Shown here: piece after piece, positions 1 to 35,468 of the stretch
How the letters are laid out: the number at the start of each line of letters is the position of its first letter
Numbering within the stretch: the first letter of the stretch is position 1
From: a virus
Length of the DNA stretch: 64,000 nucleotides
Strand: one strand, 5' to 3'
IMG/VR virus record: IMGVR_UViG_3300045988_141926
Coordinates: 380-64,379 of that record
Program-made: the position numbers and the translations under genes
Notes under the pieces: model-generated
What the model saw: the letters and a program-made list of their open reading frames with translations, nothing else
Databases searched by the model: none
What the model was told of the DNA's origin: nothing

Positions 1-3000
1 TAAAATAAATTTAATAATAGAAGAACTGTCTTCATCTTCCAAGCCATTCTATTCAGTACCGCCTTGTAATTTTAAATTTAAAGCAGTATAATCAGAAGCA
101 ATAGTATTTCCTATATCAATTAAACTAGATACCTAAAATAAATCCTTTAGAGTATCCATATTATCTAAATCAATTTTAGTATTTTTTAATTTCTCAATTA
201 AATCAACGCAAGCATTAAAAGGATATAAAAAATTATCATTATCATCAGTACCAATAAAATTAATAAACGCTTTAGTATCAGAATCTAAATTATCAGTCTA
301 TCCTAATAATTTATTTAAATTTCTACGAGATTGTTTTAAACGTCCATAATACCATAAAATTTCATGTATGCCACCCAAAACTTTTTGATATAATAATTTA
401 TCTAAAGCATCATCGTCATCTTGATCTTTTATAATAGCTAAATACCCTATTATAGTATCATATAATCCTTGAATAGAAGTCCAAGCATCAATATAATAAT
501 TCATTTGATTCCGACGAGCCTCAGCTTCAGAAGTATTGGTACTGCCCAGCCCTGCTAAAACTCTATTATAATGATTTTTTATATTAGTTAAAATCTCAGT
601 AATATTAATTGAAGACTCAATTTGCTCAAGATTATCTTTTATTGAGTTGTAATTAGAAGAAGTAACATTTGTTAATTGATTAGCTATACTCTAATAAATT
701 AAACAATATAACCATAATGCCGCTTTATATCTATAAACAGTTGCATTATAACCATCATCAGTAAGCGTTTGACCATTTTTATCAGCGATTTCATAAATTT
801 GATTTAATAAACCACTATAATCATTCGCAATAGAATTAGCATTTTCAATAGCAGAATTCTAATTATTATAAAGAGATTGTAATAAAGAATCTAATTTATT
901 TAATTTAGAATTAATACCTTCTTTAGTTGGTTGCTAAATTAAATCTAATAAATCCTATTCTTCTTCATCCTATAATTTTAATTCAGTATACATACCTTTA
1001 TTTATCTACATTCGCTTAATTGTTTTTAATACTTCTTTTTTTATTTCAGCTTTCTTCTCTTCAGTAATATCATTTGACCATAAATCAACAATATCAAAAT
1101 TCTTTAATGCTGCTGGTTTCATAGTATTTAAAATTTCATTAATAATATTACGATCCTGCCAATTAATTATTCTTTCTAAACGAGATTGATGATCATTTAA
1201 ATCTTCATAAGGAATATTATTTGATTCTGATAAACCATTTAATAAAGTATTATAACTGCGAGTTAAAGTTAAATATCTCTAAAAATTATTATCAGCTTCT
1301 GCTATTAGTTCATAATTACGATATAAAGCTCTTAAAAATTCTGATTGCTATATATAATTATCTTTAGCTCGTTTTGTTTCACTATCATTTACTTCAGTAT
1401 AATAATCTAAAATTTCTAACTAAAACGTTGCTTCCGCTATTAGCCCCGTACCAATCTTAATTATATCAGGAGAGCTTAAATTAGAAAAATATCTATTATC
1501 ATCATACTCTAACTCTACAGAATTATCAAAACGAATATAAAAATCTTTAATCTAATCTTGCTATACAATTGACTTAGCAATACTATTTTCATCAACAGTC
1601 CAATCAGTATGATAAAACTCAGGAACTGGATTATAATCTTCTTTATTCAACCAACGAATAGCTGTTGATAAATAATCTTTTTCATGAATTAATTCATTAT
1701 TATTTTTTATAGTTTTATAGAATGTAGCGTTTTTTAATAAATCTTCTAAAGATTTTATCTAAGCATCATAAAAATCATTAATAGCTTTATGGTCAAACAT
1801 AATAGCAGTTTGTAATTTTTTTTCTCTTAAATCATTTAATGCTTTAATTTGATTATTAATATAATCTTGATATTTATCTGTAGCTCCTTTAGGAATAATA
1901 TAAACATCCTTAACTAATTTATATTTTCCATCTTTTTCAACATACAACTCTAATTCATCATTTAAATATGTCTTTTTATTTTTAATTAAAACATAATATA
2001 ATCCAACTTCTTCGTCATATTGAATGTCATGTAATTTTTCATAACGATATTTTTCATTGATATAAAATGAAGTGTCAAAATCATCAATCACTGATTTCCA
2101 ATAACAATCATAATATTGACCAGTCTTTACTCCAAAAATATTAGTACGCTATGTTGGCATCCAAGAGTCAAAATGAGGAAAATACTCATACATCTAAAAT
2201 ACACAAAATTCATCATTTACATTAAAATATTCTCTTACTTTTGGAGTTAATTCATCTATTGGATAGGGCTCTCCAAAAGGAGAAACAGAATATAATAAAT
2301 ATTGACTTCCGAAATTTTCTTCATAATCATATTTAGAATAACTACCATCAGCTTGAGGCAAACATACATGAGTTGCTTTTCCATCACTAATCGCCCAAGG
2401 TACTCCAGATGGATTTTCCGCAGTTATCTTTGCCCATCCTTCAGGAGTGACATATTCATAAGGTACAGCATAAATAGGTATTAATTCGCGCACTTTTATG
2501 TGTAATTGTTCTAAATTTAAAACTTTTAATTTATCTCTAGTATAGTTATAGAATTGAGTATTAATATAAGACATAATATTGCCAGGTTCAAATCCTTTAG
2601 CCGCTAAAGTATCATAAATTTTTTCAAATGCAGAATTTGCATCTAATTTATTTAATACAATTCTTTCATTTAAAGAGCTTAATGCATTTCTAAATTTATT
2701 AACATCTGATTCAGTTAAAGACTAATCTTTCTATTTAGTAACTAAAGTGTCTAATTCAGTTAATACTGGATTAACTCCTACAAACTAATGACTTAAAATT
2801 GTTTTTAATTTTACTTCAGTGATTGCATCAAAGTCTCCATATCGAACTCCTTGATACTGGCATTCTAAAATGCCTACTGGATGAGTATATTCATCATTAG
2901 GTATTCTAATACGACTTATTTTTCGACTTGAATTATTATAAGTATATGAACCAGTAATTCCAATTAAAATTTCATCTTCTGTTTTTTCTGACACATCACC

Positions 3001-5469
3001 ATAAGTTAAGAAAATACTAGACCCAGGTAATAAATCTTGAACAGAAAATTGACTAATATTATTTGATTCAAAATCTATAGTAATATCCATACCTGGCTCA
3101 TATTCATTTAAATAATAACTACGCCATAATGAAATATATTTACTAACAATATCAGATTTTATAAATCCATATTTTAATAAATTTTCATAAGTTAAATCCG
3201 CAATTTCAACACATTGTCCGGTAAAAGAATGAAGCATACGTCCTAGTGTATCTACTGGCGACATAGAAATATTCATAATACGAACGATAAAATTCCCTTC
3301 TGGTCCAGACCGGAATAATTTAGGCTATCCATTATTTAACCAATCTAAGACTTCCATTTTAAAATTGCGCTCTTTATGAATATTATTTTCAATTAAATCA
3401 CAAGGATTTTCTAATACTTTTTCCATACGATCAAAAAATTCTGTACTATTTTTAATATCGGCATGGTCAGTACAAGTTCTAATATAATCTTGAATTTCTC
3501 TATCATAAAATAAAATTTCATCATCCATTTGGTAAGAAATTAATCCACTAATAGGAAATTCTTTATAAGCAACTTTTCCATTTCTGAAAATAAAGGGAAA
3601 TTTATTGCCAATTGTATTTGTTTTTTGTTCTAATATTGTAGTTTTAAATGAAGATACTTTAGGATTGAATTTTACTTTTAAAACTCTATCTCCATCATAT
3701 AAAAAGATATCTTCAAAATCAACTGAAACGGGTTCACTTTCAATACGAGAAGAGTAAATACCAAACAAATTATATTGAATTATACCATAAATATATTTAA
3801 CACCTTGTTTAACAGTATAATCATTATAATCCACTAATGATGGTTTCATATTTTCAAGTTTAAATCGTTTTAATTCTAACCAAGAACGATATTCATCCTC
3901 TTCGCTGGCCCTTACTAAAATGTATTGACCAAAATAAGTATCTTCTTGTTTATCTACTTGGTATTCAATATTAGAATCATATCCTAAAATATGTAAATAT
4001 TCTTTAGCTAATTCAGTAGATAAATTAGCCGTAGTAATAATATTTTGGCATAAATTAATTAAACTCTAATCTGTAACAATCTAATCTAACTCTGTTTCAT
4101 CAGCATTTATAGAATCCTATAAATAATTTAAATAAGAATTTACTCTATTCTATAAAATAATATTTAAATTTTTATATCCTTCAAATGAAGTAGCAATATA
4201 TACTGTAGTATTCCATAAAAATTTACTAAATAAATTATAATAATTTATTTCTTCTTTTTCTTTACCGATATTTTCTATAACAGAACCTAAATATTCTCCT
4301 AAATATAAATCAAATTCTTTTGATTCCATAATTAAAGACTCTAAAATACCAGTAGAAATACCACACATATCATTTAATAATGAAACATTATCTCGTAAAT
4401 ATATTCTATACTTTTCTAAAATATTAACAACAAATCCTGATTCCTAAATTCGATCAACCCACTCTTTAATTTGCGGATTATCTGGACTATTTGCCCCTTG
4501 ATAGAATCGTTTTAATTTTATCATTAAATTTTTAGAATAATTATAATAAGTATTAATACGAGTCATTTCCTTAATAACATTTTCTTGACGGACTACTCGT
4601 TCAATACCATGAAAATTAACATTAATACATCCACTATTTGGATGAGGGTCTGTTGTGATTGAAATACTTTTACTAGGAGCTAATAAAGTTTCTGCTGTTA
4701 CTCTATACATTGGGCTTGATGCCACATATCCATTTAAAGTTGTAACAGTATAAACTAATTTATAAACTTCACTAGTTTTAATGAAACTACTTAAAACAAC
4801 TGAATCAGTAGATATTCCATATTCAATATCATTAGAATTATTATGTAATAATTCACCAGTGGTATAATATAATTCCCCTTCTTCTGTATAAAATGAAAAA
4901 TTATAAGAATATACTTTTTCACTCTAATCAAAATCAGAAGATAATTCATACAAACCAAATAAATTATTATTAAATAAATTAATACTATCAATTGAATACC
5001 CTTTAACTGAAATTTTAGGTTCCTAAATACATTTAATAATACCAATAGTAGAATAGTATCCTGTTAATTTTTTAACAACATTAACTGTAATAGTTTCTTT
5101 CGTGTCAGGATCTTCTTTTGTTTCAGTCTATGTATATTGTGAAATATAGGCTAATTGTACCTTGTAATACTAACCTTCATTTAATAAGGCTCCCTAAGAA
5201 GGAGGTATCGTAAATGTAACAGTAGAATTAGCAGTATTAAAATCCATTGATTCGATTGGATTAAATAAATAAGTATTTGTTGAAGCAGTTTTTAATCGTA
5301 AAACAAATCCAACAAATTCTTTATCATTGACCGCGGCACTCGCAGTAAAAGGAATTGTAATCTGAACATCCTTTAATACTTTCGTGTCGCCTGTTTCAAT
5401 ATAACTCTTACAAAAAGCAGGTAAAGTACCTGCTATTACAGGAGGATATAATCTTTCAGGCATAGTCAT
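1..5469 (-). CDS. Giant tail fiber / tail-associated lysin-like structural protein, 3' end beyond window (>1820 aa)
   Basis: A continuous minus-strand frame runs from the ATG at 5469 (SD AAGGAG upstream) to position 1 with no TAA/TGA, only in-frame TAG, checked codon by codon. It sits after the tape measure and Dit-like genes. The start overlaps the upstream stop as ATGA. Confidence 0.6.
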
Positions 5470-8381
5470 TCTCCTTTACCACATAATTATTATTTATTTT
5501 CCAATGCTTGAATGCGTTTTACTAAATTTGGAATTGTTGTTTGCTATAATGTATTGAAATTACTTTCCAAAATTTGGATACGTTGTTCTAATTTATCGCA
5601 CCTATCAATTAAAGTCTTAATAGTAGAATTTGAAGATAAATTACATTGGACGGGTACTCCATTTAAGAAATATACTGGGTTCCCAGAGCTTCCAATATTT
5701 AATAAACTTTTATAATCAGCACTTGCTAAATTCTATGCTGAAGTAGCAGTTTTTATCCAAGCTTCTCCCTAATCGTTTATTTTAAATATATTTTTTTTAT
5801 TATCAAAAGCGTATAAACCATATTCTTCTAAATTATTATTATTTTTAAATGTACCCATTAGTACACCTTTAGTCTAATTACTATTTAATTGTCCTACTGT
5901 AGTAGAAATTAATTGTAAAGTTTCGTCATTAAAATTAATAGCTGCCCCTTGTAAATCATTCCACATTGCAATAGGATAATTATTTTTAATCACTACAATA
6001 GGCTATATCCATACTATTTTGTCTGTTTTATTCTATGCCTATACATAGAGACAAGTTGAATTATTATCTTGAGAGGAAAATACAGTAGGCGGAATAATTA
6101 TATTATTTTCAAATTTCCACTATGCTAAAATTTTGTTCTCATCATTTTTAATATTATTCTGCAAGCTCCAATTTAAATTTTCAGATACAGTTTCAAACCC
6201 ATCCATTTCAGTTGTATATTTAAAAATTTGATAATTAGTTTTTTCATATACCGGTTTTTTACCAGTAATATCATAAGTTATTATAGAGCATCCATCAGCA
6301 CAAACATATTCTGGATTAAATGTAGTAGGAATACTAATATATCCCTCTAAATTATTATTATTATAAGTTCCTTTTACTTTAACCACTAATTTTGATAAAA
6401 GATTAATATCAGATTCTGTTAATGCTTCATGAATTTTAATAATATTATCCACTAATGAAATCTTATCAGAATTTAAAGAATTATAATACCATTCATAAGT
6501 TAATTCAATATCAGAACGTCCTTGCCAAGTATAATCATATAAATTAGCAACTATTCGATACTCCTTATCTTGAGAAATAGGACAAATAACTTTACAATCC
6601 TTATACTAATCTTTAATTTTTTCTTGTAGTGATAATTGAAGTACACAATTAGCCCCAGAAGAGCCGCTATTACCAAATAATAATTCAATTGAACTGGTAT
6701 ATATCTAATTATTAATTTCAATTTCACATTTAATTGTATTATTTCTAAAAAGTGGATTGTATAAAGAGTTAATTCTAAAAGGTATATAATATATTTTAGT
6801 TGTAGGATTTAAATAATCATACATAGGAGCAGTATTTTTATCAGTATTTAATATATGCTCAAACTCATACTCATCATGCTTATTTATCTTTCCATTTTCC
6901 ACTGGAATAATCATTGTTTTTTTAGAAGGTAGCATATATCGTAATCGAACACCATTTGTCAATGTTGTAGTCTTACTAGTATCTTTGCTATTAAATTCTA
7001 CCGCAATATAATGGATTTTTTCTCCATCAGAACGAGCTAATAATTGGTTATCTTGTCCATATATATAAAATGTATTATTATTATTATTCGTAAATAAATT
7101 TAAACCAGCTAATAAACCAATATCTGGATTATATAATGTATTTGTATAAGAACATGACTAAGAATATCCTAAAACTTCTCTTGTTCCTATTTTACCTTTA
7201 AAATAAATCCTATATGATTGAGTAAAAATCTAATCTCCTAAACGGAGAGAGATAGAAATTGTATTACCCGCAAGAATAGGAATCTCATCATAGCTGCCAT
7301 CTGCTCTTGCACCTAAACGCCACCAACCTTGACCAAATACTGAACTATTTTCAGTTACATCTTTATCATAAGAATATAACCATATTTCTGCCCCAGTAAA
7401 TGTAGCCAAAGTCCCTGAAGTCATATCTATAACTCTAAACCCCATTGTAACCTTACGTTTTTCTTCATCTTGAGAGGGAGTGAACTAATATCTATTGCTA
7501 CCTCTTGGATATAAATAAACGCCAATATTACTATCAGTTGTAATATCTGAAAAATTACTTTTATAATATCCTAAATATAAATTTATATTTTTAAAAACAA
7601 TTGAAAAAGAATCTGAACTATCAATTTTATTATTATCACTATCGTAAAAATTGCCATTTTCCCATAATTCAATTTGGATATCATTAATAATTAAATTAGT
7701 AACATCTATATCAAAATATTGAGAAGTATAACCTCCTGTTTTATATGCACTTAAAAATAACATATCTTTATTAGAGGATATTGTTGTGGTCTGTCGAGTA
7801 AATGTTTTTAATTCTTTTGTTGTCTAATCTTTTCCACTTAATATAATACGGATACCATAAGTACCTTTATTTAAAGTTTTTGCGCCATTATATAAATCAG
7901 CCATTAAATTATAAGAAATACGTAAAGTCGTATATCCTACTAATTCATTATTACTTATATAACTCTGAGGACCCATAATAGTTTTACTAGACTCTCGACC
8001 TTCAGAACTAGGAATTAACACAATCTCTTTACTCTAATTAAAAAGCTAATTAGCTGCATAAAAAGTTTTAGAATCATCTTTACCAATTACTTCATAATCA
8101 CTAATTACACGTCCAGTAATCAATTTCTTACCAGAAAAATCGCCTTGTGGAATTAATACATAAACTTCTTCATTAAGAGCATAAGATTTATCTTTTTCAT
8201 TAACAAAAACTGTTAATTTAGCTCCTTTATAATTTACAATATATTTCTATGCTCCTTCAATACTTTCAGGAACACTTTCTACTACTCCAACTATTGTCTA
8301 GTCAAATGGTAAATTCTATAATCGAGCAGATACAATTGTGTCTACTGATCGGAATATTTTTTCATTTAATTCATTAGACAT
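5466..8381 (-). CDS. Large tail/baseplate protein (Dit-like position), ~971 aa
   Basis: Frame-0 minus ORF from the ATG at ~8381 (SD AAAGGAGAG) to the TGA at 5466-5468. Only in-frame TAGs were found. The TGA overlaps the next gene's ATG, so translation is probably coupled. Confidence 0.55.
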
Positions 8382-8493: not shown

Positions 8494-11400
8494 TTAAATA
8501 GTCTTTCGACTAGCATATTGACTTGCTTCATTTTCCATCATTTCAAATGCTTCCATAATTTCATTACTATCAGTCACATTCGGGAAATCAGCATTAATAG
8601 AAACTTGTTGCATAAATTCTTGTGCAATTCTATCAACACCAAGAGAAGAAGGAATAAGATTAGATAAATAGCTTACAATAGTCTAAACATTTAATCCTAT
8701 ATTTTGTAATATAGTAGAAATATCTAAACTATCCATTAAAGCAGTATCAATATTTAATTCATTATTATTCATCCAACCTTCAATTTGTTTATTTATATCT
8801 AATTGATCTAACATATCTAAATAAGAGAATTGAGAAATATAATCAGGAATTCCAGCTGATTTATTAAAACTCTCAGAATTATGTTGAGTACTAATTATAT
8901 TATTGGCAGTCGCTGTTGAACGAGAATCAATAGCATTTTCATATTTACTATAATCAATACTCTACATTCCAGACAAAGCAGCCACCATTTCATTCATAGT
9001 TTTTACTAAAGCTTCATTACGCTTAATCGCACTATCAATTTTAGAAACATAAATAGATTCCCAATCACTGGCTGCTTTAATAACATCATTAAATGAATCT
9101 GTTGCATTTTTAACAATTTTTTCCATATCTGCAACGGCTTTATTTGATTCACCAGTAATTTTGATTGACCATCCAGAAGCTTCATCAGCAAAACTTCCTT
9201 CAATACCTGCTGTACTATTAATTTCTTTAATTTTATTTAAATAATCATCAAGTAATTTATTAGAATCAGCTACATAATTATCATGGCTTTTCCAGAATGC
9301 GTTAAACATTTCATCTAATGTAGAATATCCTGTTTTTAATGCTAAAGTAGTCTAATTGAAATTTTCAACTAATGCGCCAGAACTATCTTTATAATATGCT
9401 ACAAATTTTTCATTAGCATCTTTACTGTTTTTAAATACTTCTTCATACTACTAATGAATTTGCTGCATACGTTCATCATAATATTTTTCTAAATCAGCCG
9501 CCTACTTTTCATATTCAGCTTGAGAAATTTCACCTTGAGTGAATGACAACTTTATTGCTGTTAATTTTTCTTGATAATCAGATTGTAATTGAATAATATT
9601 ATTTTCTAAGGTTTTCAAATATTCTTCATTAGCTTTTTGATAAGCATTTAATTTATCTTCATATTCTTGTTCAGCTTCAGCTATTTTATCTTCATTAGCA
9701 CTATATACATATCCCCAATTCCCATTATTGTCACGAGTTAAACGAACAGTTTCATTAGAGTTTTGGGCGTCTTCCAATTTCTATCTAGCTAGCTCTAATT
9801 CATATTTAGATTGTAAAATCTTTAAATCATATTCACTAATTTTAGAGCCATCTTTTAATTTTTTATTTAACTCATCTTGTAATTTATTTAATGCTTGTTT
9901 ATGAGGAATAATGTCAGTATCATCAATAGAGCCTTCAATTTGGCGTCTTAGTTTATTTAATTCATAAGTCTTGTCAGCATCACTTAAATACTAATCATTT
10001 AATTCATTAGCTCTAGTAATAGCATCTTGCAAAGCCTCAATAGAACCATAAATAGGAGATATGCCATCTTCAAACTCTTTGACGATATTATCCATTTCTT
10101 CTTCAAAGATATCATGAGCTCTCTCTAATGTCTCTTGCCAAGTATCTAAGAAATTTTCTTCAGCATCATGAACTTGCTTATCAATTTCTTTTAAAGTGTC
10201 ACTCCATCGTTTAATTCCAATTGAATCTTCATTAGCAACAGCTTTATCATACTATTCTTGAGCGTCAGCACGCATTTGTTTTAATGCCTCTACTTGCTAT
10301 TTAGCTCCTGCAAGATTATTAATGCTATTATTCATTAATGAACGATTTAAATTACGCAATACTAATTTTGATTGTTCATTTAATTGAGCACCTAACAGGG
10401 AAGTAATATCTTTAACACCTTCAAGAATATTTTGATAGTGTTCAAATAAATCAATTTGGTCTTGAATATCCTCACTAAATTGATTAAAACTATCAAGAAC
10501 TTTTTCTTGAATAGTTGCTCTCATTTCAAGCAATTCTTGATTAGCTTCTAAAATACTAGAACGCCATTCTCGAATTTGATCAATTTCATCTTCAGTGAAA
10601 TTCTTAGCTTTTAAATCATCAACAGTTAATTTATCCAATTCTTCAATAGAATTAATACCATGATTATTTAATAACTCCAGCAAACCATCAGAATAAGTTT
10701 TGGTTTTTTCTAAAGCGTTTTCTGCTTTTTCACCAATTAATGCAATAGCTTCAGCCGCTGAATAGGCGTCATCTTCAATTTTACTAAGTAAATAATCAAG
10801 ATATTCCAACTCATCATCTTTAACGGCAATTTTAATTTCAATCTTGTATTGAGTTTTTTCAAAAATTACATCAGCTAATTCAGTTTGTAAATCATATAAT
10901 TTTTCTAATTCGTCTTGGCGCAGATTATTAGTTTCTTCATATTGTTCTAAAGCTTCAATAAAATCATCATAAGCCTCTTCTGCCGCTTTATCAGCATCTT
11001 CATTTTTACCAATAGATGAATTATATTTGTCAATCTGGCGCTTCATAATTTCATCATAATTAATAATAACACCAGTTTCATCAAACTCAGCCCCATAAGA
11101 TGCGATTAAAGACTTATCTTCTTCCCAGTATTTATTAATTTCATCAAGATATTGATTCTATAAATCAATCATTTCATCATATTTCTCAATTTCTTGATCC
11201 ATTAATTCTAATTTAGAAGTACCGAATGCTCTTTCTTTAGCTTTAGCTAAATGATCCATTACCTCTTGTAAATCTTCAATTTTTTGTTTAATTACATGAT
11301 AGCGCTCAATTTCATCTTTATACTCTTTTGGAGGAGGAGGAGTGTAATTACCACCGCCTCCACTAGGATTATTATCATTCGTATTATTATTTGTTGGACT

Positions 11401-17408: not shown

Positions 17409-17452
17409 TTCAAAAATCCTCCTTTTACACTTATTTATATTATACTAAAAAA

Positions 17453-22524: not shown

Positions 22525-23101
22525 AAGGATAATTTTTATAATGAAATACGCCCCAATTGGATTCGTATTTCCCTTCTACTAATTTACGACGTTTATATAA
22601 ACGTTGCATATGAAATGATTGTCTCTAACATTCACTCAGTAAAGACATCAATTTTTGTAAATGATTAGCCTATGAAGTCATTTTAAAATCTGAACCACTA
22701 TACTTCATACGAGTGTGTTCAATAGAAGTAACTTGGCGCTATACCCAATTTACCATCATCAATATAGCTAAAATATTAATTTCCTCCGGTGTTAATTCAG
22801 CTCCAAAAAATGAATGTTCTATCATTACACGAGGAGGGCGGATTTCTGATTCTTCATCTTTTTCATCTTCCCACAAAAGACCAATTACAAAATCATCTTC
22901 TAATATTTCATTTTCATATTTAATTTCCTAATCAATAGTATAGTCATAAATATCAAATCTAGGAAATTCAAATTCAGGTAAAATATTTAGAAGTATTGCA
23001 CGTAAATCTTTAATTGTATCTTCTGGAGTTAATTCAATATAAAGGTCATCAGTAATTTTCCCAAGGAAGCGATTATAAATATCAGTGAATTTAGTTCCCA
23101 T
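22514..23101 (-). CDS. Connector-region protein, ~195 aa, in-frame TAGs
   Basis: ATG at ~23101 with SD AGGAGG. Stop TAA at ~22514. Confidence 0.4.
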
Positions 23102-23798: not shown

Positions 23799-24905
23799 TC
23801 AAATTTGTCCACTTAGACGTCCATCATAGGTAGCAACCTTACCAGTTACACCATCATAGTTCCAAGTATACATCTGACCCATTAATGAAGTATCAACATA
23901 AGAGCAAATGTTGTTAGCCAACATACAACCAACGCCGACCTTCTTATAAACCTGAATCTCACGAGAACGATCATAATTGCTGAATTCATCAACAATAGTG
24001 CCACCCTCGAAAGCAATCTTTACAGGCTTGCCATCAACACCAGTAGGAATAATCCAAGCATAACCAGGATCAATAACCTTACGGGTATTACTTTCATCCT
24101 CGAAGCCCTGCTCTAGAATAACAACCTTGGTTCCCTTATAAGAAGCCAAACGACCAGTATTCCACAGCTCAGTCTTCATAGCTTCAGTATAACGCCAAGC
24201 TTCATTAGGAATCATACGAACAGCAAATTCATAAGTACAATAAATAGTAGGAGTACCATAAGCAGAAGCGATGGTAATCAAACGATCCATAGCACCCTCA
24301 TCGAAACCTGCTGCAGCAACACGGTTAGCAGGAGGTAGCTGATTGATAGAAGACTTCAAAGCTAAAGCAACTTCCTTGTAAATCAGTTCATCCATACCAT
24401 CCATAATAATCTTGGTAACTTCAGCGAAGTCAACACGACCATCTAAGAACTCTTCGAAGCCAATTTGAGCAGCTCCACCGATAGCAGAGGTACGAACCTC
24501 AAAGCTCTCGTTCTCAGCAGGTCCCAGCTTGAAGACTTCATAAATACCAGCCAGTCCAACACGAGTTACGAACTGCTTAGCACGTGCGCGTGTATTTAGA
24601 GGACGACGGAAAATGGGCTTATCACCCTGAGCAAACTGCTTAACTTCAGCAAACTGCTCATAAGACTGAGAAACCTTCTTAGGAAGAACTTCATCCAAAG
24701 TTTCCTCAATCATTGAGAAAATCAGATTTTTATTTTCACGATATAGAGCATTGGTACCAGCCAGCTCATTCATCTCATTACGTAGAGTATCATTCAGAGC
24801 CTCATAAGAAAGGTTCTGACCATTATAACTGTAAGCCACAGGAGAAGAAGGATCAGCCTTAGCAACAGTCTTCATTAAAGCAACTAAATTGTTTCTATCT
24901 AACAT
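23799..24905 (-). CDS. Major capsid protein (HK97-fold type), 368 aa
   Basis: Intact ORF with elevated GC and no TAG. The sequence resembles phage major capsid proteins. It lies downstream of the scaffold gene. Confidence 0.7.
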   Translation of the reverse strand: MLDRNNLVALMKTVAKADPSSPVAYSYNGQNLSYEALNDTLRNEMNELAGTNALYRENKNLIFSMIEETLDEVLPKKVSQSYEQFAEVKQFAQGDKPIFRRPLNTRARAKQFVTRVGLAGIYEVFKLGPAENESFEVRTSAIGGAAQIGFEEFLDGRVDFAEVTKIIMDGMDELIYKEVALALKSSINQLPPANRVAAAGFDEGAMDRLITIASAYGTPTIYCTYEFAVRMIPNEAWRYTEAMKTELWNTGRLASYKGTKVVILEQGFEDESNTRKVIDPGYAWIIPTGVDGKPVKIAFEGGTIVDEFSNYDRSREIQVYKKVGVGCMLANNICSYVDTSLMGQMYTWNYDGVTGKVATYDGRLSGQI

Positions 24906-24922: not shown

Positions 24923-25855
24923 TTACGCAATACGTAGAATCTTAGCGCCACGTTGTCCATCAGGCATAGTATATACCTTAACAACCTGCCACTTCATATC
25001 CTGGCTCTCATCCTTAGCTAAAATACCCTTGGCATCAGGAGCTAGAATGTCACCAACAGAAACACTATCTTCATTAATCATATTAGTAGTGTAATGATCA
25101 CCAACATTAGTCTTAAAGACACGAGGAACCATTGCGGTACCTGGAGTCATGCGCTTCTCATGATATACACCAAGCTTCTTATATGGATCATTAGTCCAAG
25201 TTAGCTCTTCGTAAATATCAGCGACATCAGTTAGAACCTTATCATAAGCATACTTTACAGGTACAGGAGTCTTAGTTTGATTGGTCTTAGGATCAATCTC
25301 ATACTCTACACCATTATAAGTAAACTTATTGTCCTTAACATCATAAACTTCGCCAGCAATAGTAACGGTCTTTAGGCCCTAGTCTAAAGAAACAGTGTGC
25401 TCAAGCACCTTATGGTCAGCACCAGTTTCATCAACACCATTCCAGAAACGTCCACCATACTCAACCTCAGTATGCTCCCAATCATATGGAGAATAAATAC
25501 GAGCCTGATAATCGTCCTTTAGCATAGCAAATTCGCAATCCCACTGCTTAGTTCCATCAGGATGATCACGATATAACTTAATCTCATTGTAAACTAGCAT
25601 CCACTCGCCCTTGCCAGTAAAATTCACTTCACCAATGCCATTATCATTAGCGGCGTAATCGTACTTAACAAACTGACCGTTTTCAAGAATATTAATATCC
25701 TTGTTAGCAGGCAACTGAGCATAAATTTGAGCGGTTCTTTGTGCAGACAGGTGATTTGGCTCAACCTGACCATAACCAAACTCAACATACTTAGCCTGTG
25801 ACTTAGGTGGATTCTTACCAACGCCTAAATGAGAATTTAAAAAATCCTTAAACAT
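24923..25855 (-). CDS. Capsid-associated protein, ~310 aa, one in-frame TAG
   Basis: The fragment ORFs 25379-25855 and 24923-25150 share a frame and are joined by a TAG at 25379. GC is elevated. Confidence 0.5.
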
Positions 25856-25873: not shown

Positions 25874-26830
25874 TTAGTTTTTATTGGCTGATTCTAGAAC
25901 AGCCTTGACCCAAGCTGGCATTCCAGCATCACTGTCATTATCTAAATTGCTTAAATTATAGGTAGTTGGGCCTTTATCATTATTATCATCATCAAGATTA
26001 AAATTAACCTTGTTGCGAACGCAAATAACAGAAAGTTTTGCTTCAATATCATCAACAGAATACTTGTCAATATTATCAATAACATCTTTCTTATCATCAT
26101 CAGACAACATATAGAATGATTGAATCATAGCTTCTTTATCCTTACGCTCAATACTATTTTTGAACTCAATCAAAGAAGTATTAGTCTCACTTAGAGTCTT
26201 ATTTTCAGCCTCTAATAAACTAAATTTATTTTGCAACTCTTCATACTGTGCCTTTAAATTAACATATTCTTCAATTTCATCCAAGGAATACTTTTTCTTT
26301 TTCTTGTCATCCTTATCATCTTTTGAAGGATCATCATCTTCATTTTCTGACTTTTGACCATTATTTTTAGAAGAATTATCATCTTTTTTCTTCTCAGGGT
26401 CGTCAGAATTATCGCCCTTATCATCGTTTGCCTTTTTATTTTCTTCTTCTTCTTCTTGCTTTTTCTTAAATTCGGTTTCATAAGCTTCAACCGCTTCTAA
26501 AGCAAATTGAGGTTCTGCTGCTGGATTATAAGATTTAGTCACTTCAATTAAACCTTCACCAGGAACAAGACCATCAGAATCATTTAAAGAAAAGTTTAAA
26601 CGATAATATTTCATATCTCCGCGGTCTTGAAGAATAGCAAATTTTTGACTATTATCTTCAAAAACACCATCAATACGATACTTAGAGCAATAATTGTTAG
26701 AGCCATCAGGGAAAGCTTTATTTACATACTCCCATAAAGCACTCCATAGAGAATCTCCGATTTCCACGGCGTATCTATTAAACACTTTTGCTCCTCCTTC
26801 TTTTAATAATTCTTTTAGTTCATTCATCAT
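25874..26830 (-). CDS. Scaffolding protein from an internal in-frame start (318 aa)
   Basis: Met-Met start at 26830 inside the longer frame. Has an acidic/Lys-rich coiled-coil low-complexity core. Confidence 0.45.
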   Translation of the reverse strand: MMNELKELLKEGGAKVFNRYAVEIGDSLWSALWEYVNKAFPDGSNNYCSKYRIDGVFEDNSQKFAILQDRGDMKYYRLNFSLNDSDGLVPGEGLIEVTKSYNPAAEPQFALEAVEAYETEFKKKQEEEEENKKANDDKGDNSDDPEKKKDDNSSKNNGQKSENEDDDPSKDDKDDKKKKKYSLDEIEEYVNLKAQYEELQNKFSLLEAENKTLSETNTSLIEFKNSIERKDKEAMIQSFYMLSDDDKKDVIDNIDKYSVDDIEAKLSVICVRNKVNFNLDDDNNDKGPTTYNLSNLDNDSDAGMPAWVKAVLESANKN

Positions 26831-27466
26831 TGAATATAGTTCATTTTTAAAACTATCATCAAATGAAAGAGAAAACTTTGTAATAGAGGAGCCTTCGAAG
26901 CAAGGTTCACACTCTTCTCCTAAAATACAAAGTTTAGAAATAATTGCTTCATTAATAATGAAAAACTACGGCTTTCCATTATTATCTTTCGTCCAAGTTC
27001 CATCTAAAGTGCCTTCATCGAGTTCCATAGAATGATTATTACCCTACTCAACAATGCGCTTACATTCTGGATATTGGCCGGTCCATAAATATCCTTCAGT
27101 CATAAGATATTCATGTTCATTAACGCCATCATCTAAAAATTTCTAAAACCAAACCTTGGCACCTAAATCTACAAAACCATAAGGTCTAGTAGTGTCTTTC
27201 ATTTCAAATTTACCATTTGAAATGTCAATAATTCTATTGTGTTCCTCAAAATCTCCATTAGATTCATTGTAAAAACCAACAATAGGACTGCCAGGGAGAC
27301 TGTTAGCCATCTCCCTTGCAATTTCTTTAGAAATAATGCTTCGATTGCGATTTGGTTCATCCCCAACGTAGCAAACTTTAATTTGGCATTTAGAAATCAA
27401 AGGATTAATAGGAGTTACATTAATAAATTCACAAGGCGTTTCAAGTTTAATACTTTGATGCTTCAT
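25874..27466 (-). CDS. Prohead protease-scaffold fusion frame (~530 aa)
   Basis: ATG at 27466 with SD AGGAGG. The frame continues through TAGs into the charged coiled-coil scaffold region. The layout resembles lambda C/Nu3. Confidence 0.45.
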
Positions 27467-27477
27467 GATTTACCTCC

Positions 27478-29139
27478 TTAATTCATTGACTCTTTATTTT
27501 TTATGGTTTTTTCACTTTTCTAATCATCAGCCTTTTCAGGTCGCCCAGACTATTTTGTTTCAGTAGTCTGTTTTGTAGTAGTCTATTGATTACTACTTCC
27601 TGAATTATTTTGTGTTTTATTCTAATTGTTTGAACCTTTATTACCCAAAACATCTTGACTGCTCATAGTAGAAGACATTAATGGTGGGATCATAATTTCA
27701 GTTAGTTTCAACACATCATTTTCAAATACCGCAGTATTTAAAATGAAACTCTAAGAATGACCAAGAGCAATTTGAGGTAACATCTTAGAATAACCAAGTT
27801 GCGTTTGCTCTTTATATAATTTTGACATTTCTTTATAATTATATTGTGTAGTTTCAAGCATATAAAATTTAAAACTATATTTCTTATTGTTCGCAACCTT
27901 CATCTTTACTATTCTATCAAAAAAAATGTTAAATTGCAACAACAAGTTTCTAACAGTTGACTCATCATTAAGGATAGACTTCTCTAATGATAAATTACCA
28001 TCAGTATTGAATAGATTTTGAGAAATACCTAAATTATTATAAACAGTACGTTCAACTTTTGCTAAATCATCTGTAGTAGTTGTAGTATTTTTATCTGATA
28101 AATCAATAGATTGAACATCAGTAAATGTTGTTAAAACATCAACGCCAATAGCTCTTGATAACATAGCAACAGCATTATTGTGTATGTCACGAGATTCATC
28201 AATATCAAATATTAAATCACCATTTTTATCCATTGGAAGTTTTTGAACAATAATTTTTAACAACTTCTACATTTGTTTTCTGCGGTCTAAATCTTGAGCA
28301 GCATCTAAATCCATAAGAGCAGGAATAGAATTAATAAATGGTGGGGTATCGCTACCATTAAAATTAAATTTCACACTTAATTCTGGGGATAGTAAATACC
28401 AGCTTCCACTATAATCTCCCTTAATATCAGGAAGTAATTTTCCTTTCTTATATAAAACATATCCACGCTAAAATTCTTCAGGGAATAATTTTAATACGCG
28501 CATACGATAATTAGGATCTGGGAACTAATCAAAAAACCGCATATCAAACTCAATTGCTGGCATACCAGCCACAAAGTATCTAGAACGGCAATAACTAGCA
28601 GGCAATTCTTGTAACATTAAACTATTTGCAGATTGCACTATATATCCATAATAACAACCATTTTTCATAATACTTTGAGCAATATCACCGCAGATTTTTT
28701 TAATATAAGTATTATCTAAGTAATTTAATAACTTTGAAAAATCTTTTAAAACTTTTTCATCTTTTACTGTATCATCTAAAATTTCTGGAGCGACATACCA
28801 ATCATATCTATACAAATAAGCAAAATAATTACATACTCGCTCATAAATGCCACTAATATCATAAAATAAATTAGAAATTCTACGCATTTCAACAATATCA
28901 CGATTTATCATAGCTCGTAATACATCATTTTTAGTGACCATGCGACATGGACCACGACGATTAGGATATAATCGAGCAAATGACCCTAAATCTAATACAG
29001 CATCATCTAATGTTTGAACCCCAACTTTTATCTTACGATATTCTGTTGGATCAGCAGTTCGATAATCACTTGTTCCATTGCTGATATTAAATCCTTTGGA
29101 GTGGATGATTTCCTAACGTGATAATTCTTTAGTATCCAA
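27478..29139 (-). CDS. Portal protein (~553 aa), TTG start, in-frame TAGs
   Basis: The fragment ORFs 28525-28941 and 27751-28263 share a frame. SD AAGGAGGTG lies upstream of the TTG. The TAA overlaps the next gene's SD. Confidence 0.55.
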
Positions 29140-29151: not shown

Positions 29152-29508
29152 TTAATATCCAGCTAATTTCATTATATAATCATATGTAATAAGATTTTCA
29201 TCTGTATAAGGAATCTCTATTAATTTAAAATCATGTAAAGCACAAAAACGTCGTTTCTGATTATCATTATACTGTTGTTGATATAAACCTTTTTTACCGC
29301 CAAATTTCGCACTAGGCTCATAATGCTATTTACCCTAATACTCAATAATAAAATCAATTCTACCATCATCATCAAAAACAACAAAATCGAAACGTAATGG
29401 TCTACCGCTTGGTGCTTTTAAATCTGGAAAAATATATTCCATCTTGAACGGTAATTCAGCTTGCCGCAAAATTTCTTCAATTTTAATTTCGCCTCTAGAC
29501 GCTCTCAT
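29152..29508 (-). CDS. DUF559/Vsr-like PD-(D/E)xK endonuclease (~118 aa)
   Basis: Motif RFDFVVFDDDGRIDFIIEY-G-H. SD GGAGGT. Sits between the terminase and portal genes, a common site for homing endonuclease insertion. Confidence 0.4.
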
Positions 29509-29518: not shown

Positions 29519-31252
29519 TTAGTTTAAGAAACACCAATCTTTAGCATTAAACTTTTTACGTTTCTTCTTTTTATCTTCTTCTAATTTTAAATAATATAGT
29601 CCATATTCAAAAGCAGAAAATTTATCTTTTCGGATACTTTTATTTGCTTGCTTCAGGATAATATTTACTCCTTCAGTTTCTTCACGCAAATTCATCATTT
29701 CTTCTTTTAATATGGAAGTTAAAGTAAATGGTTTTAATTCTTCTGCCCTCTATTCTGGAGTCATAGTTTGACCTTTCTTTTTAGCAAGAAGTTTATTTTT
29801 TGCTACGCGCTCATCAATTAAAAATTTTACTTTTCCAGAAGCGAGTTGTGATTTAGCAATAGCGTGAGCTTCTGTATTAAGTGGCGCATTAGCTTTTATA
29901 ATATACATAGCATCTAATACGGTATTAGATGTTTTATATTTCTTGTAAAATAAATCATCATCATTAACAACGCCAAAATCAGGGAAGATTTCGTTGGTTT
30001 CAGGGTCAATCTATGTTTTAACCATATAATCAATTAAACCAATTCCTAAACCATTACCATCAATTACAATTCTATCAGCATTATATTTATAATATAATTT
30101 TTTTAATTTAATAGTTTGGTCTTCAAAATGCTCATCAGACAATGTATATAAGTTTACTAAACTTTTAATTGAACCACCTTGTGATTGTGGGGTCACTTTA
30201 AATACACAAATAACTGAATCACATCCTTTACGGCCAACGTCGACCGCAAGTACATAAGATGCTAATTTTGAATTACGCCCAGATGCTTCATATTCAGGCT
30301 AATTTAATATTCTATTTCTATCAAATATTTCAGCATTAAAAAACGCATCTTCTACAGTACCAGACCATTTACTTTCATATTCTCGGTCAAATGAACTTTC
30401 ATTGAATGTTCCGTCCATTTTTAGGTCTTTAATAAAATTCGCATCCAATAATTTCATTAAAACAGGAATACGATAAGTACCACCCATAATAATGGATTGC
30501 TAAGGTTTAACAATTTCCCAAACTAATAATTGAATTAATTTATCATAAGGGAATGTATTTTTATACCCAGCAGTAGTAATATAAATTTGAGATTTATTAA
30601 GAGTTTCATCAGGTTGAGTAGTACCATCCATACACATACGAGAAATATTCATTGTAGGGATAATAACTTGTGATAGAATATCACCATCAACACCAACACA
30701 CTCTTCGATTAAACCACCATGGCGACGTTTACCACGAGAAGACTCTCTCGCGGCAATATTGTCAAAATATGAACCATTTTTAAATACATATTTAACATAA
30801 TCTTTTCCTTCAAGTGTCTAGCCACGGCGCCAATCTATTTCTTTCTAAAATGCAGGAATAAGAGTACAAATTTCTTGGACTTTTTCTTTTACAATTCCAG
30901 CCGCTTGTTCTTTACCACCAGAAGTAATAAATAATTTACATCTGGGATATAAAATCGCACGACACATTAAGACCATCATTGATAAAAAAGATTTTGAATA
31001 AGCACGAGGAAATACTGCATAAATATATTTATGACGCATCGCAGCGCGCAAAAAAATTCTCTAATAAAAATAGAGTTTAAAATGTTGAGGGCCGCCATCG
31101 GGTCCTGCCATAAAGTCGATAAACATATCTGGATATTCTCTCCAAAAGGCTATGTACTATCTTGCTTCTGGTATAATTGCACGAAGACGGTCCTCTGAAA
31201 TTCCAATCTTTTTACGCTTCTAAGATAAATCAAGTAAATCCTATAAAGCCAT
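29519..31252 (-). CDS. terL: Terminase large subunit (~577 aa), about 8 in-frame TAG
   Basis: P-loop-like RAYSKS and a nuclease-domain region (ESKWSG). The fragment ORFs 30845-31051, 30299-30487 and 30011-30196 share a frame. SD GAAGGA. Confidence 0.7.
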
Positions 31253-31253: not shown

Positions 31254-32450
31254 TTATCCTTCTAAATTCCTCAAAGTCTAAGCATCTATTTCAGACTCTT
31301 CTTCAAGGAAATCATTATATTCAATTAAATCTTCATCTTTGAGATGGTCAATCTCTTCCATCGTTAAATCTTCTTCAATATCTTGGTCTTCTTCTTTATT
31401 TTCTTCTTCTTGCATTTTCTTGATAGCACCTTCAATGAGATTACCTAGATTCATTTCTTCGGTGACCAATGTATGTGTATAATTCTTTAAATCTTGTAGA
31501 GTTTCATCAACTTTATCTTTTGGACCTTCTGTGTAATACCGAGGAATAAATCCTTCAGTTTCACACATAGCCACTAATTCTCCGATAGAATCAAATGCTT
31601 CTCCTGTATCAGCCTTGTTTTGAGCGGCGGTGAAATTACCTGATTTCATTAGACTATCATAAACCTTGCTCATCTTTTGGAAACCTTCGATATCACCAAT
31701 ATCGATTAGCTAGTTCGCCTTCAAGGATGTTTTACAAATTAACTTTAATGTATCAATATGACCAGCGCCACGAATATCATAAGAACTCATCATTTCTTCA
31801 TAGAGTTGCTCTAATTTAACCCATTCTTCTGGTTTATAAGCTTTACCCCATTTCATACGAAGATATAGAATATCTTCTTCTGTTAAATCGAGGTCATCTG
31901 CTGGGTCATGTTCAATACCATTCTATTGGTCAAAATAATTATCACCATCTCTAAAACGCTCTGGTAATTCAGGAGTATAAGGTTTTAATTCTTCTTCTGG
32001 AATGGCGACGGTAGATTTAGCAATAGCAGTTGCTATTTGCTAGGCATCATAGCCTTGTCGTTTCATAGTTTGCTCTAATTTATTATTAGCCACTTCCTAT
32101 AAAAACTCAGAATCTTTCCATCTATAATCTTTATATTGTTTAAGTTTCATTTTGGACAAATATCTACCTAAAATACTCATACCAGTTAATTTAGATTTAT
32201 CTTGTCCATATTTCATCATTAATTTACTCCACTCATCAGGAACGTATGGTACATCAATCTCTTGTAAAATCCACATATAAGTTTCTGGATTCCAGTTATC
32301 TACAAGCATTGTGATGCATTTTTTACATTGAGGGAGTTTTCCATCATTTGGATATTTTTCTAAATTATTAGATGTATAGAATTGGTCAGCGCCCATAGTT
32401 CTATTACATCGTTCGCAATAATATACTTTATTACTATTATCTACAGCCAT
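31254..32450 (-). CDS. Hypothetical protein (~398 aa) with N-terminal CxxC...CxxC
   Basis: ATG at 32450 with SD AGGAGG. The frame is continuous through TAGs to the TAA at 31254, next to the terL start. Confidence 0.4.
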
Positions 32451-32492: not shown

Positions 32493-33557
32493 TTATAACT
32501 GTTTGCCCTTGTTTTTGGCATTGCGGCATTTTTTACAAATACTATAATAACCATCTTTACTAGTTTTATTTTTGCTAAAATATTTATTATGTGCTAATTT
32601 AATTTGCCCACAGCGACTACATTTTTTATATTTACCTTTTGCTTTATGTAAATAGTAATCATATAGGTATTGGTCTTCAGCCGCTGAAGCGATTAATTTA
32701 GGAATTTTATTGCGCCATAAACTAGAAATATATTCTAAACTATGGGTAATATTAAATTCCTCTTGGATTCTCTTTTGGATGTCTATATTCTATAATCCAT
32801 CAATTTTATATTCAACTATTCTGTCATATAGTGGATAATCTTTAAGAGCGATGGTACATAAATTATCAAAATCTTCCATAATATACCATAAATCTCTTTC
32901 AAAATCTCCCCAACTATCTTGTTTTAAACGAGAATAATTACATAAAATTGCAGAACATACTCTAGGATCTAATAGTGAAATGCCATCCGGGATTGGATAA
33001 CCATCATCATCAAAAATGCAAGTTGTGTCCTCTAATGGAATAAAATTTCTTGAACGAGTAATTTTAGTCATAATAATTGGACGACGAACCGCATTTTTAA
33101 TAACATACTAATCTTTACGCATTTCAATAATAGCACGTTTAATTATAAATGCTTCGCGTCCTTCACTAACTCGTAATTTGGCTTCCCAAGTAGTAATGGC
33201 GTCTCTCAACTATTTTAAATGAGGTATTTCTTCTATATCTTTTTTAGTAATTGTAATTTTAGGCTAAAATATTGTATTTTTATTTTCAGTAATTAAATTA
33301 TAAATTCCATCTTCGCCATTCTCAAATTGGGAAACAAGACCTTCAAAAGATGTTTCACGTTTATTAACTGTTGCCATACGATTATCAGTTAATAGTTTAC
33401 GCTCCTTCTTCTCTTGTTTCTCCATACAAAGAATGATATAGTCCCCTAATATTTCTAAATATCGAGGAGAGGGGTCTGGGGTTTCCTCTAATATTTTCTT
33501 GACTAATTCATTTCTTTCTTCTGGAGTTTGTAAGGAATAATCTAATTTTATCATCAT
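32493..33557 (-). CDS. First gene of the late operon (~354 aa), C-terminal Zn-ribbon
   Basis: ATG at 33557 with SD GGAGGT. C-terminal CSRCGQ...CKKC motif. The frame continues through TAGs at 33264 and 32790. Confidence 0.4.
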
Positions 33558-33725
33558 TACCTCCAGATTTTTTTACGTCTTCATTATACAAAAAATTTTT
33601 CCAGGTGTCAAATTTTAATAAATGCATTTAAAAAATTTTTAAACGATACTATTAATTGGAAAAAATTTGACAATAAAAAAAATTTTTTGTATTATTATTA
33701 TAATAAAAAATAAAAGGAGAAGTTT
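33558..33725. promoter_or_regulatory. Divergent promoter region between the late operon and the plus-strand block
   Basis: ORF-free and AT-rich. Contains TTGACA...TATAAT upstream of the 33726 gene. Confidence 0.45.
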
Positions 33726-34124: not shown

Positions 34125-34315
34125 TTGTTATCTTTTGGATAATCATTTCAGCATTAGTAATGTTTGAATATATTGATGCAATTCAAAGCGCCGGTGAAAA
34201 TAAATTAATTGTTTGTTTAATATTTTTTATTGGTGGCCCAATATTTGCTGCGAGTGATTTATTACAAAGAATTTTAGATATATTTTTACCGGAAGGGTGG
34301 AATGGTGATGACTGA
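34109..34315 (+). CDS. Small membrane protein, 68 aa
   Basis: Hydrophobic ORF. Confidence 0.4.
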   Translation: MGAYVIVIFWIIISALVMFEYIDAIQSAGENKLIVCLIFFIGGPIFAASDLLQRILDIFLPEGWNGDD

Positions 34316-34334
34316 AAAATAGATTAAATATATT

Positions 34335-34625
34335 TTGAAAAATTTTAAACGAGGCACTATTATTCTATTTATGGGTGTATCATTTAATCAATATATTAAT
34401 CTTGAACAATTAACTGAAGCAGGATATACTTGTATCCTATTGGGTGAAGGTCAAGATTATTGGCCCTATATTAAAAATAATATGATTATTTATGTGGATA
34501 ATATTGATACTAAAATAAATTGTTATCCACTACATTGTCCTATTTTTGTATATAATAAAAATCAAGTTATTAACGCGGAAGATAGAGATGTGCGCGTTTG
34601 GGCAGAAGTGTTAAAAGAGGAGTAA
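34335..34625 (+). CDS. Hypothetical protein
   Basis: ORF. Confidence 0.4.
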   Translation: MKNFKRGTIILFMGVSFNQYINLEQLTEAGYTCILLGEGQDYWPYIKNNMIIYVDNIDTKINCYPLHCPIFVYNKNQVINAEDRDVRVWAEVLKEE

Positions 34626-34626
34626 T

Positions 34627-34920: not shown

Positions 34921-34924
34921 TTTT

Positions 34925-35242
34925 ATGGAAGATGGAAAAAATTATTTTGATATTGTAATGCGAGAAGGCCAAGCAATAGTTCATAATGAAGGTTCTATTC
35001 ATTAGGTTGATAGTTTAGGCCGTCTTGTTTTTCCTAAAAATTTAAGACAAAAATATGGTATTGCTCCTGGCGACCGTATGGAATTTTATACTATTGAATA
35101 CAATGGTGAAATTTATGTTGGAGTGCGAGTGAGTAAACGATATGGTAGTAGAATAGAGTATTTACGCGCTAAAGAAGTATTAGATGATTTAGGAATTGAA
35201 ATTCCTCAAAAACTAACTGATGCTATTAATGGAGTAATATAA
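34925..35242 (+). CDS. AbrB/SpoVT-family DNA-binding protein with an in-frame TAG at ~35003
   Basis: VDSLGRLVFPKNLRQKYGIAPGDRMEF matches the AbrB swapped-hairpin domain. The TAG falls at the conserved RKVD position. Confidence 0.55.
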
Positions 35243-35244
35243 TT

Positions 35245-35388
35245 ATGCCTAAGTATAAAAGTTTTGGTAATGCACTTGCCGCTAAGATGCAGAAAAAAGC
35301 TAATTATTATGCTACTAAAGCAGTTCATCAAATTGTATGGGGTGAAAACCCTAAACGTGGTCGTCCTAAGAAGGAGAATAAAAAATGA
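35245..35388 (+). CDS. Small basic protein, 47 aa
   Basis: ATG after the TAA. Ends in TGA, overlapping the next ATG. Confidence 0.35.
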   Translation: MPKYKSFGNALAAKMQKKANYYATKAVHQIVWGENPKRGRPKKENKK

Positions 35389-35468
35389 TTCTTGAAGCAT
35401 TAGCATTAATAGGATTAATTTTATTTTTTCCTATTTGGTTTTTTGGTAGGAATAAAATTAAAAAATAA
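35385..35468 (+). CDS. 27-aa hydrophobic peptide
   Basis: MILEALALIGLILFFPIWFFGRNKIKK. Confidence 0.3.
   Translation: MILEALALIGLILFFPIWFFGRNKIKK

Follow-up and report, generated by a model that had tools for sequence, protein, structure and literature searches.

Predicted reading of TAG as glutamine in the late genes of a large tailed phage, with probable decoding by a phage suppressor tRNA

The left half of a 64,000-nucleotide stretch of the IMG/VR virus record IMGVR_UViG_3300045988_141926 (positions 380 to 64,379; hereafter the window) carries a minus-strand block of phage structural genes that the standard code (code 11) cuts at one TAG after another. This raises the questions of whether these TAGs are true stops and, if they are sense codons, which amino acid they specify and what decodes them. 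The window is part of a gut or rumen phage of ~197 kb, whose close relatives have circularly permuted genomes of ~197 kb. An initial annotation, made from the letters alone, had proposed that TAG is read here as an amino acid, probably glutamine (Gln). We conclude, with a probability of about 0.9, that the window belongs to a large tailed phage whose late genes are written in code 15 (TAG as Gln), that these genes are decoded most likely by a phage-encoded tRNA with the anticodon CUA, termed tRNA(CUA), and that the recoding may serve as a timer.

Reading frames of the late block

Stop codons were counted in all six frames, with TAG, TGA or TAA treated as sense in turn. Treating TAG as sense yielded minus-strand frames of 8,292, 5,475 and 2,910 nucleotides (nt), and no comparable frames appeared in these counts with TAA or TGA as sense. 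Twenty frames that lack TAA and TGA (g01 to g20; Table 1) cover the minus strand of positions 1-33,572 from end to end. As the initial annotation had anticipated, these frames close on TAA or TGA, with 19 ending in TAA and only g13, the gene of the major capsid protein (MCP), ending in TGA. The 20 genes contain 10,961 codons, including 174 TAG, 272 CAA and 49 CAG, so that TAG would account for ~35% of Gln codons and 1.6% of all codons. In-frame TAA or TGA, which had been named beforehand as evidence against the proposal, is absent from all 10,961. A start codon lies near the upstream end of each frame, preceded in nearly all 20 cases by a strong Shine-Dalgarno (SD) sequence (AAGGAG/AGGAGG) at the usual spacing, again as described. 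The stop/start overlap coupling (ATGA/TAATG) that had been called usual is found at just 3 of the 19 late junctions.

The longest frame without TAA or TGA, that of the tape measure gene, measures 8,289-8,292 nt, compared with a mean of 456 nt and a maximum of 714 nt in 50 shuffles of the region. Open reading frames (ORFs) of at least 200 amino acids (aa) cover 11.6% of positions 1-33,600 under code 11 and 74.7% with TAG as sense, in agreement with the earlier statement that the standard code fragments this region, and the codes that read TGA as sense (4/25) bring zero gain (11.6%). The reading frames without TAA or TGA are real and lie far above chance. No complete late gene (0 of 19) ends in TAG, and TAG does not act as terminator in any of the ~90 genes called in the window. 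For annotation, this means that the 33-kb module falls into dozens of fragments under code 11, whereas code 15 resolves it into 20 clean genes, one of which encodes the 2,757-aa tape measure protein.

Two broader statements of the initial annotation held in part. Every large minus-strand gene had been said to be broken by TAG only; TAA and TGA are indeed absent from all of them, but g06, g12 and g13 lack TAG as well, and g14 has a single one. The tape measure gene (56 TAG) and the >1,822-aa tail gene (31 TAG) have the frames ascribed to them, free of TAA and TGA. The late operon had been drawn across 1-35,400; its minus-strand part stops at 33,572 and 33.7-35.4 kb is plus-strand, but two genes there do carry TAG. 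In a close relative, the operon runs more than 17 kb leftward past the window start, with more giant TAG-rich genes there.

That the TAGs are true stops, left in a decayed phage or introduced by sequencing or assembly, would explain the fragmented appearance under code 11 and nothing further, and we regard it as extremely improbable. Among the stop triplets in the three frames of the minus strand, roughly one in four is TAG, which puts the chance of finding TAG alone at all 174 in-frame stops at ~0.25^174; these counts already refute true stops. SD-preceded starts and TAA/TGA ends are intact, and the same pattern occurs in 61 independent assemblies, with which TAG sites are shared above chance. 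Homology does not end at TAG positions either: profile matches continue across them in the portal protein (residues 74-551), the tape measure protein (17-515) and the large terminase subunit TerL (11-216 and 351-577). The base after a late TAG is A in 44% of cases, compared with 29% after CAA/CAG. A 3′ A after TAG is a context that favours suppression in Escherichia coli. After the true late stop codons, the next base is T in 14 of 19 cases.

The amino acid specified by TAG

An MCP query recovered 80 related IMG/VR loci, 5 at ~96% DNA identity to the window and the rest at ~70-73%. At the TAG sites of the window, the relatives have TAG in 23.6% of cases, CAA in 23.7% and CAG in 5.9%, and any other codon is rarer; the relatives' own TAGs in turn align mostly with Gln of the window. 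We then scored the residues at TAG sites against the substitution profile that each of the 20 amino acids shows in these alignments (n = 3,888). Gln obtained the highest likelihood (-2.29 nats per site), followed by Lys (-3.32), Glu (-3.38), Ser (-3.55), Leu (-4.79) and Tyr (-5.25). Between the window and the five ~96%-identical genomes, TAG is exchanged with CAA/CAG in both directions (35 and 27 site-by-genome cases), so these triplets behave as synonymous codons. The four TAGs of g20 sit on invariant or near-invariant Gln columns of 50 database homologues.

Further evidence comes from 19 of the 80 relatives (L023-L034, L036, L056-L059, L069 and L070; MCP 81-87% identical), which have no in-frame TAG across ~5,500 aligned codons. 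At the TAG sites of the window these sisters carry Gln in 49.8% of cases, Glu in 8.6%, Lys in 5.8% and Ser in 2.6%; Leu, Tyr and Trp each stay below 1.5%, which is not the pattern of code 16. Their Gln counts (229-259) roughly equal the sum of Gln and TAG in the recoded genomes. The Gln residues at TAG sites in relatives, the likelihood scores, the two-way swaps and the conserved columns of g20 together argue that TAG encodes glutamine, the assignment of code 15 that the initial annotation had considered probable. A non-Gln residue (Leu as in code 16, Ser, Tyr, Lys, Glu or pyrrolysine) is very unlikely, given the sisters' residues, the distance from Gln to Lys as next in likelihood and the conservation of the Gln-plus-TAG total across codes. 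What speaks for such a residue lies in the tRNAs, to which we return below.

The TAG-free sisters seem to use TAG as a terminator, as their portal orthologue reaches TAG as its first stop. In a neighbour-joining tree, the 19 genomes fall into two groups placed within the recoded lineages, which implies at least two code changes. We considered whether the recoding is ancestral and was later reverted. The most distant recoded lineages share TAG sites with the window above chance (odds ratio 2.3, p = 3e-5, TAG-avoiding genes removed), and the lineages next to the standard-code ones do not (odds ratio 1.27, not significant); this mixed sharing favours neither direction of change. The clade is nevertheless a natural experiment, in which recoded and standard-code genomes, with MCPs 77-100% identical to that of the window, stand side by side in IMG/VR. 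Alignments could show the order in which TAG was lost as a stop, the tRNA was gained, TAG spread into genes and, possibly, the process was reversed.

Candidate decoder and timing of late translation

The initial annotation had suggested a search for a CUA-anticodon tRNA, which gave no such gene in the window but did find it in genomes of the same clade. A pattern built from the tRNA(CUA) genes of phAss-1, the closest named relative, matched the same kind of tRNA in same-clade contigs, among the matches listed. A clade-specific tRNA pattern and a search by neighbouring protein recovered only the group with MCPs ~90% identical; in 11 of 11 close same-clade genomes fetched by the neighbouring protein, tRNA(CUA) lies between tRNA-Val(UAC) and tRNA-Tyr(GUA). 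It is also present in a same-clade genome with an MCP 81% identical, so that carriers range from 81 to 90%; the stretch examined of a more distant locus, L233, contained no tRNA(CUA). The slot belongs to an array of ~20 tRNAs on the early-gene strand, placed by gene order ~33 kb past the right end of the window. The relatives' array is rich in anticodons that read A/U-ending codons. ARAGORN detected no tRNA in the structural regions of 60 relatives, and Rfam searches returned nothing in the window and only the array tRNAs in a relative, with no theta/HDV-like ribozyme at gathering score. A release-factor GGQ motif (GGQHVN-type) was absent from the 248 sequences examined, and no aminoacyl-tRNA synthetase gene was seen in the DNA examined.

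The long-arm form of the clade's tRNA(CUA) has ~90 nt (L222, 15549-15638; L140, 7965-8054; L123, 7777-7866; and phAss-1, L082, 3443-3533 on the minus strand). Long variable arms in bacteria are a feature of Leu, Ser and Tyr tRNAs, and this is the point in favour of a non-Gln residue, together with the ARAGORN label Pyl, which is given to any CUA tRNA. Sister genomes carry in the same Val-Tyr slot a class-I tRNA(CUA) of 72-73 nt (L223, 6666-6737; L230, 6473-6545; L231, 7688-7760; L232, 15138-15210), which argues against such a residue and indicates that the suppressor was swapped at a fixed position. In addition to its regular CUA anticodon arm, the long form has a variable arm that contains a hairpin with a covarying stem of 2-3 bp and a 7-nt loop, Y-U-[C/U]UG-R-N, that is, a Gln anticodon (CUG/UUG) in an anticodon-loop context. 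Of 38 unique long-arm CUA tRNAs, all from unrelated viral contigs, 33 have this hairpin, and it is essentially absent from ~100 tRNAs for Leu, Ser and Tyr in the same loci; our literature search found no description of it. The acceptor ends of the clade's tRNA(CUA) resemble those of tRNA-Gln, judged by the E. coli identity rules. The hairpin could be a decoy identity element that keeps charging with Gln by host enzymes. If functional, it bears on the Gln identity of the CUA tRNA and would perhaps be useful for suppressor engineering. A further gene adjoining the tRNA array (L149, 7726-7805, equal to L222, 16211-16290) was called by ARAGORN as tRNA-SeC with the anticodon UCA and scored 33 bits with the Rfam tRNA model; it may be a degenerate or a TGA-reading tRNA-like gene.

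TAG is used unevenly across the window. The absence of TAG from g06, g12 and g13, which together have 25 Gln codons, has a chance of ~1e-5. Among orthologues, TAG/(TAG+Gln) is 1.2% for g06 (69 relatives), 3.1% for g12 and 1.1% for g13; for the four avoiding genes, g14 included, it is 1-3%, compared with 13-38% in the other late genes. Since these low ratios extend over ~70-80 relatives, the avoidance is conserved. The four genes also have a higher GC content at third codon positions (GC3) and a CAG preference, seen in the larger three. They presumably encode the most abundant virion proteins, and conserved avoidance of TAG in such proteins suggests that suppression carries a cost.

To the right of 33.6 kb, the plus strand holds ~70 small SD-preceded genes, of which 44 end in TAA, 26 in TGA and none in TAG. 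Four TAG-ended ORFs at 35721, 43463, 49383 and 53342 were rejected as genes, being translations of repeated promoter DNA. In-frame TAG is absent from 53 plus-strand genes (5,624 codons). The whole genome is able to read TAG as sense, with usage concentrated in the virion module. The homing-endonuclease genes at 29152-29508 (HNH) and 43705-44448 (GIY-YIG) both carry sense TAG, so these mobile genes appear adapted to the phage code.

The two blocks also differ in promoters and composition. Exact TTGACA-N16-18-TATAAT sequences occur at 27 sites, compared with 0.14 expected, and 25 of these fall within 33.5-52.4 kb, mostly on the plus strand and many with a TGn extended -10 element; these 25 have the N17 spacing. 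Promoters at 33500-52400 often lie in repeated cassettes of 50-140 nt, some back to back on both strands. Two exact sites are on the minus strand, before g04 and the tape measure gene and before g20, and the latter is kept with 0-1 mismatch in 56 of 62 relatives, recoded and standard-code alike. The mean GC content of 36% is split into 29% and 46%: the late block (1-34000) has 25-32% GC, a GC3 of 0.18 and 676 TTA vs 21 CTG codons, whereas the 36-53 kb block has 43-51% GC, a GC3 of 0.62 and 14 TTA vs 128 CTG codons. For Leu, Ile, Lys and Arg, the two blocks choose opposite codons. TAG use, composition and promoters all set the early block apart from the late one.

A post-transcriptional timer has been proposed for recoded phages (Borges et al., bioRxiv 10.1101/2021.08.26.457843), and such a model would fit the distributions of promoters, composition and TAG described here. 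In this model, the decoder would be the phage amber-suppressor tRNA, charged with Gln by host enzymes. The plus-strand block at 36-64 kb, with its host-type promoters and no TAG in the sampled genes, would be translated immediately by host ribosomes. The TAG-bearing late genes, including g20 with its own host-type promoter, would be completed only after the suppressor tRNA has built up, and the recoding would act as a translational timer. This very genome probably carries a tRNA(CUA), that tRNA would be charged with Gln, and translation may be gated in time.

Suppression could instead be supplied by the host, through a TAG=Gln code or an amber suppressor, to which the phage would merely be adapted, without a temporal switch. 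We know of no bacterium described with a TAG=Gln code. The lack of tRNA(CUA) in the window and in the fetched flanks fits this alternative, and some published recoded phages lack suppressor tRNA genes (PMC10607447). Genomes of the same clade, on the other hand, encode their own tRNA(CUA) at a conserved slot, and TAG is found in 0 of 5,624 codons behind host-type promoters vs 1.6% of late codons. Sister lineages with the same gene order have no sense TAG, and their portal orthologue reaches TAG first, so a phage-borne trait fits better. A host-supplied decoder is therefore unlikely, if less so than a different residue. Clade phage contigs of up to 175 kb were found inside metagenome-assembled genomes (L248-L269) labelled Mollicutes, Gastranaerophilales, Treponema, Bacteroidales and others, which is evidently mis-binning by composition.

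Several points weigh against late-gene recoding with a phage-borne, timed decoder. ARAGORN found no tRNA in the 64-kb window, nor was one found in 27 kb of flanking sequence (17 kb left and 10 kb right) taken from contig 140174, which is ~95% identical; an exact 40-mer from the left end of the window had no match in IMG/VR, and the five ~96%-identical genomes contained no match to the strict tRNA pattern. Charging with Gln is deduced only from codon substitution patterns and acceptor-end features, and the labels early and late were assigned from promoters, base composition and what the genes encode. A sigma-factor label given to g20 by PHROG could not be confirmed. Three plus-strand genes carry TAG (Table 1), so the recoding is not strictly bound to the late operon. 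The 22 bacterial-genome matches, considered as a route to the host, are phage contigs in metagenome-assembled genomes with inconsistent taxonomy and do not identify the host or its code. A more comprehensive proposal, which joins a genome in two dialects (early genes with host-like codons behind promoters of the host sigma-A type, and AT-rich late genes with TAG as Gln, with ~20 tRNAs), a suppressor with a decoy anticodon and at least two code switches among sisters, is tentative, and we consider it rather doubtful as a whole.

Further features and comparison with known phages

The late genes were annotated by PHROG profile matches, and the MCP also by tblastn (Table 1). The PHROG matches of g01 are weak and to families of unknown function; its orthologue in L084 has 7,281 nt and 41 TAG. 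The tape measure protein g03 matched 13 PHROG tape-measure families, the best being phrog_4211 (E = 1e-46) across many TAG sites. For g13, tblastn matched Bacillus-phage genes annotated as major capsid protein, in addition to unannotated homologues in Enterococcus phages of ~140 kb. Profile matches of g18 comprise phrog_15503, phrog_24618 and the TerL families phrog_5909 and phrog_38.

Table 1. Positions of late genes, promoter-like sites and TAG-bearing plus-strand genes in the window
Feature	Position	Strand	Details
g01, giant tail/baseplate gene	1..5469	-	>1,822 aa, 3′ end off window; 31 TAG; SD start
g02, tail gene	5490..8381	-	963 aa; 19 TAG; TAA end; no PHROG match
g03, tail tape measure protein	8494..16767	-	2,757 aa; 56 TAG; TAA end
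g04	16884..17408	-	174 aa; 1 TAG; phrog_30570
TTGACA-N17-TATAAT promoter-like site, exact	17439..17467	-	upstream of g04 and the tape measure gene
g05	17453..18544	-	363 aa; 8 TAG; open frame with start
g06, virion structural protein, probably the major tail protein	18614..19690	-	358 aa; zero TAG, 6 CAG, 2 CAA; phrog_2729, E = 6e-53
g07	19718..20446	-	242 aa; 8 TAG
g08, virion structural protein	20446..21048	-	200 aa; 2 TAG; phrog_6123
g09	21071..22225	-	384 aa; 8 TAG
g10	22225..22524	-	99 aa; 3 TAG; start overlaps g11 end; phrog_29637 over residues 18-99
g11	22514..23101	-	195 aa; 4 TAG; phrog_3853, E = 3e-30
g12, head-associated protein	23123..23710	-	195 aa; zero TAG
g13, major capsid protein	23799..24905	-	368 aa; zero TAG, 10 CAG, 2 CAA; phrog_4088, E = 3e-56
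g14	24923..25855	-	310 aa; 1 TAG; CAG preferred
g15, possibly scaffold or protease	25874..27466	-	530 aa; 3 TAG; phrog_3313, E = 2e-39
g16, portal protein	27478..29139	-	553 aa; 9 TAG; phrog_2739, E = 4e-79
g17, HNH/homing-endonuclease-like	29152..29508	-	118 aa; 2 TAG; phrog_9084, phrog_559; between portal and TerL genes
g18, terminase large subunit (TerL)	29519..31252	-	577 aa; 10 TAG, first at codon 4
g19	31254..32450	-	398 aa; 5 TAG; phrog_3314, E = 2e-57
g20, first gene of the operon	32493..33557	-	354 aa; 4 TAG
TTGACA-N17-TATAAT site, exact	33583..33611	-	25 nt upstream of g20 start
Plus-strand gene	34302..34625	+	TAG at codon 7; L001 has CCA there, frame kept
AbrB/MazE-like gene	34925..35242	+	TAG at codon 27; Pfam PF04014 from residue 28; no start codon after TAG
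GIY-YIG homing endonuclease gene, early block	43705..44448	+	sense TAG at codon 20; Pfam domain, residues 3-75, spans TAG

Several repeated elements lie to the right of the late block. Tandem repeats of 22-23 nt, AGAAAATTTTGACCACTTTTAT, occur at 54448-54570 (~5 copies) and 55214-55390 (~7 copies), flanking a minus-strand ORF at 54543-55205 with 3 TAG, and fall together with it in an AT-rich island at 53.2-55.4 kb. This arrangement looks like iterons around a putative initiator gene and may mark either an origin of replication or an insertion. Six copies of the palindrome ATTGTTAAAAATTTAACAAT lie at 35966-36620, three of them at 28-nt spacing, just downstream of the AbrB/MazE-like gene, and look like putative operator sites. 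A very AT-rich promoter-like repeat, TTGATTTTTTT-N-ATATAATATATATATAAG, heads gene groups at 52-62 kb on the plus strand (52391, 55463, 57938, 60906 and 61945) and may be a different temporal promoter class. A paralogous pair at 47496-47876 and 49911-50408, with stretches 73-81% identical, lies in the most GC-rich part of the window (~45-51%).

The reading of TAG as Gln is correct here but already known from other phages. Among them are a distant relative of the window, phAss-1 (OQ749652), and the phages akin to it (Babkin et al. 2023, PMC10607447). phAss-1, which is classified by NCBI in the "Caudoviricetes code 15 clade", has an MCP 50% identical to that of the window, compared with 41% for EF1, H1 and the VRE9 phages, over 88-92% of the length. 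Like the phage studied here, phAss-1 is a gut phage that has a very long tape measure gene and uses TAG for Gln in its genes for TerL, portal, tape measure and tail proteins. Of its three tRNA(CUA) genes, one is of the same 90-nt long-arm type as that of the clade. In contrast, its genome has 136 kb and 44.5% GC, compared with ~197 kb and 36% here, a megablast search with 10.6 kb of the window found no phAss-1 match in the phage collection, and the small early genes of the window point away from the late operon, on the other strand. The window accordingly does not belong to the genus Phassvirus. It shares a broad group with phAss-1, at most the family-level group proposed in PMC10607447, which includes Enterococcus phage EF1.

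In the recoded clades of Borges et al. (Lak, crAss-like, Agate, Jade, Sapphire, Garnet, Topaz and Amethyst), in-frame stops likewise cluster in genes for structure and lysis, those for replication and early functions can be read with the standard code, the phages encode their own suppressor tRNAs, and recoded phages have close standard-code relatives. The close pair of a standard-code and a recoded phage involves TGA in the Agate phages, unlike TAG here. Proteomics has proven TAG as Gln in crAss-like and Lak phages (Peters et al. 2022, PMC9523058), whereas in the clade of the window it is known from sequence alone. These phages share code 15 with the window but have unrelated virion modules, whereas the window encodes a siphovirus-type tape measure protein and has its relatives among Enterococcus, Bacillus and Brevibacillus phages.

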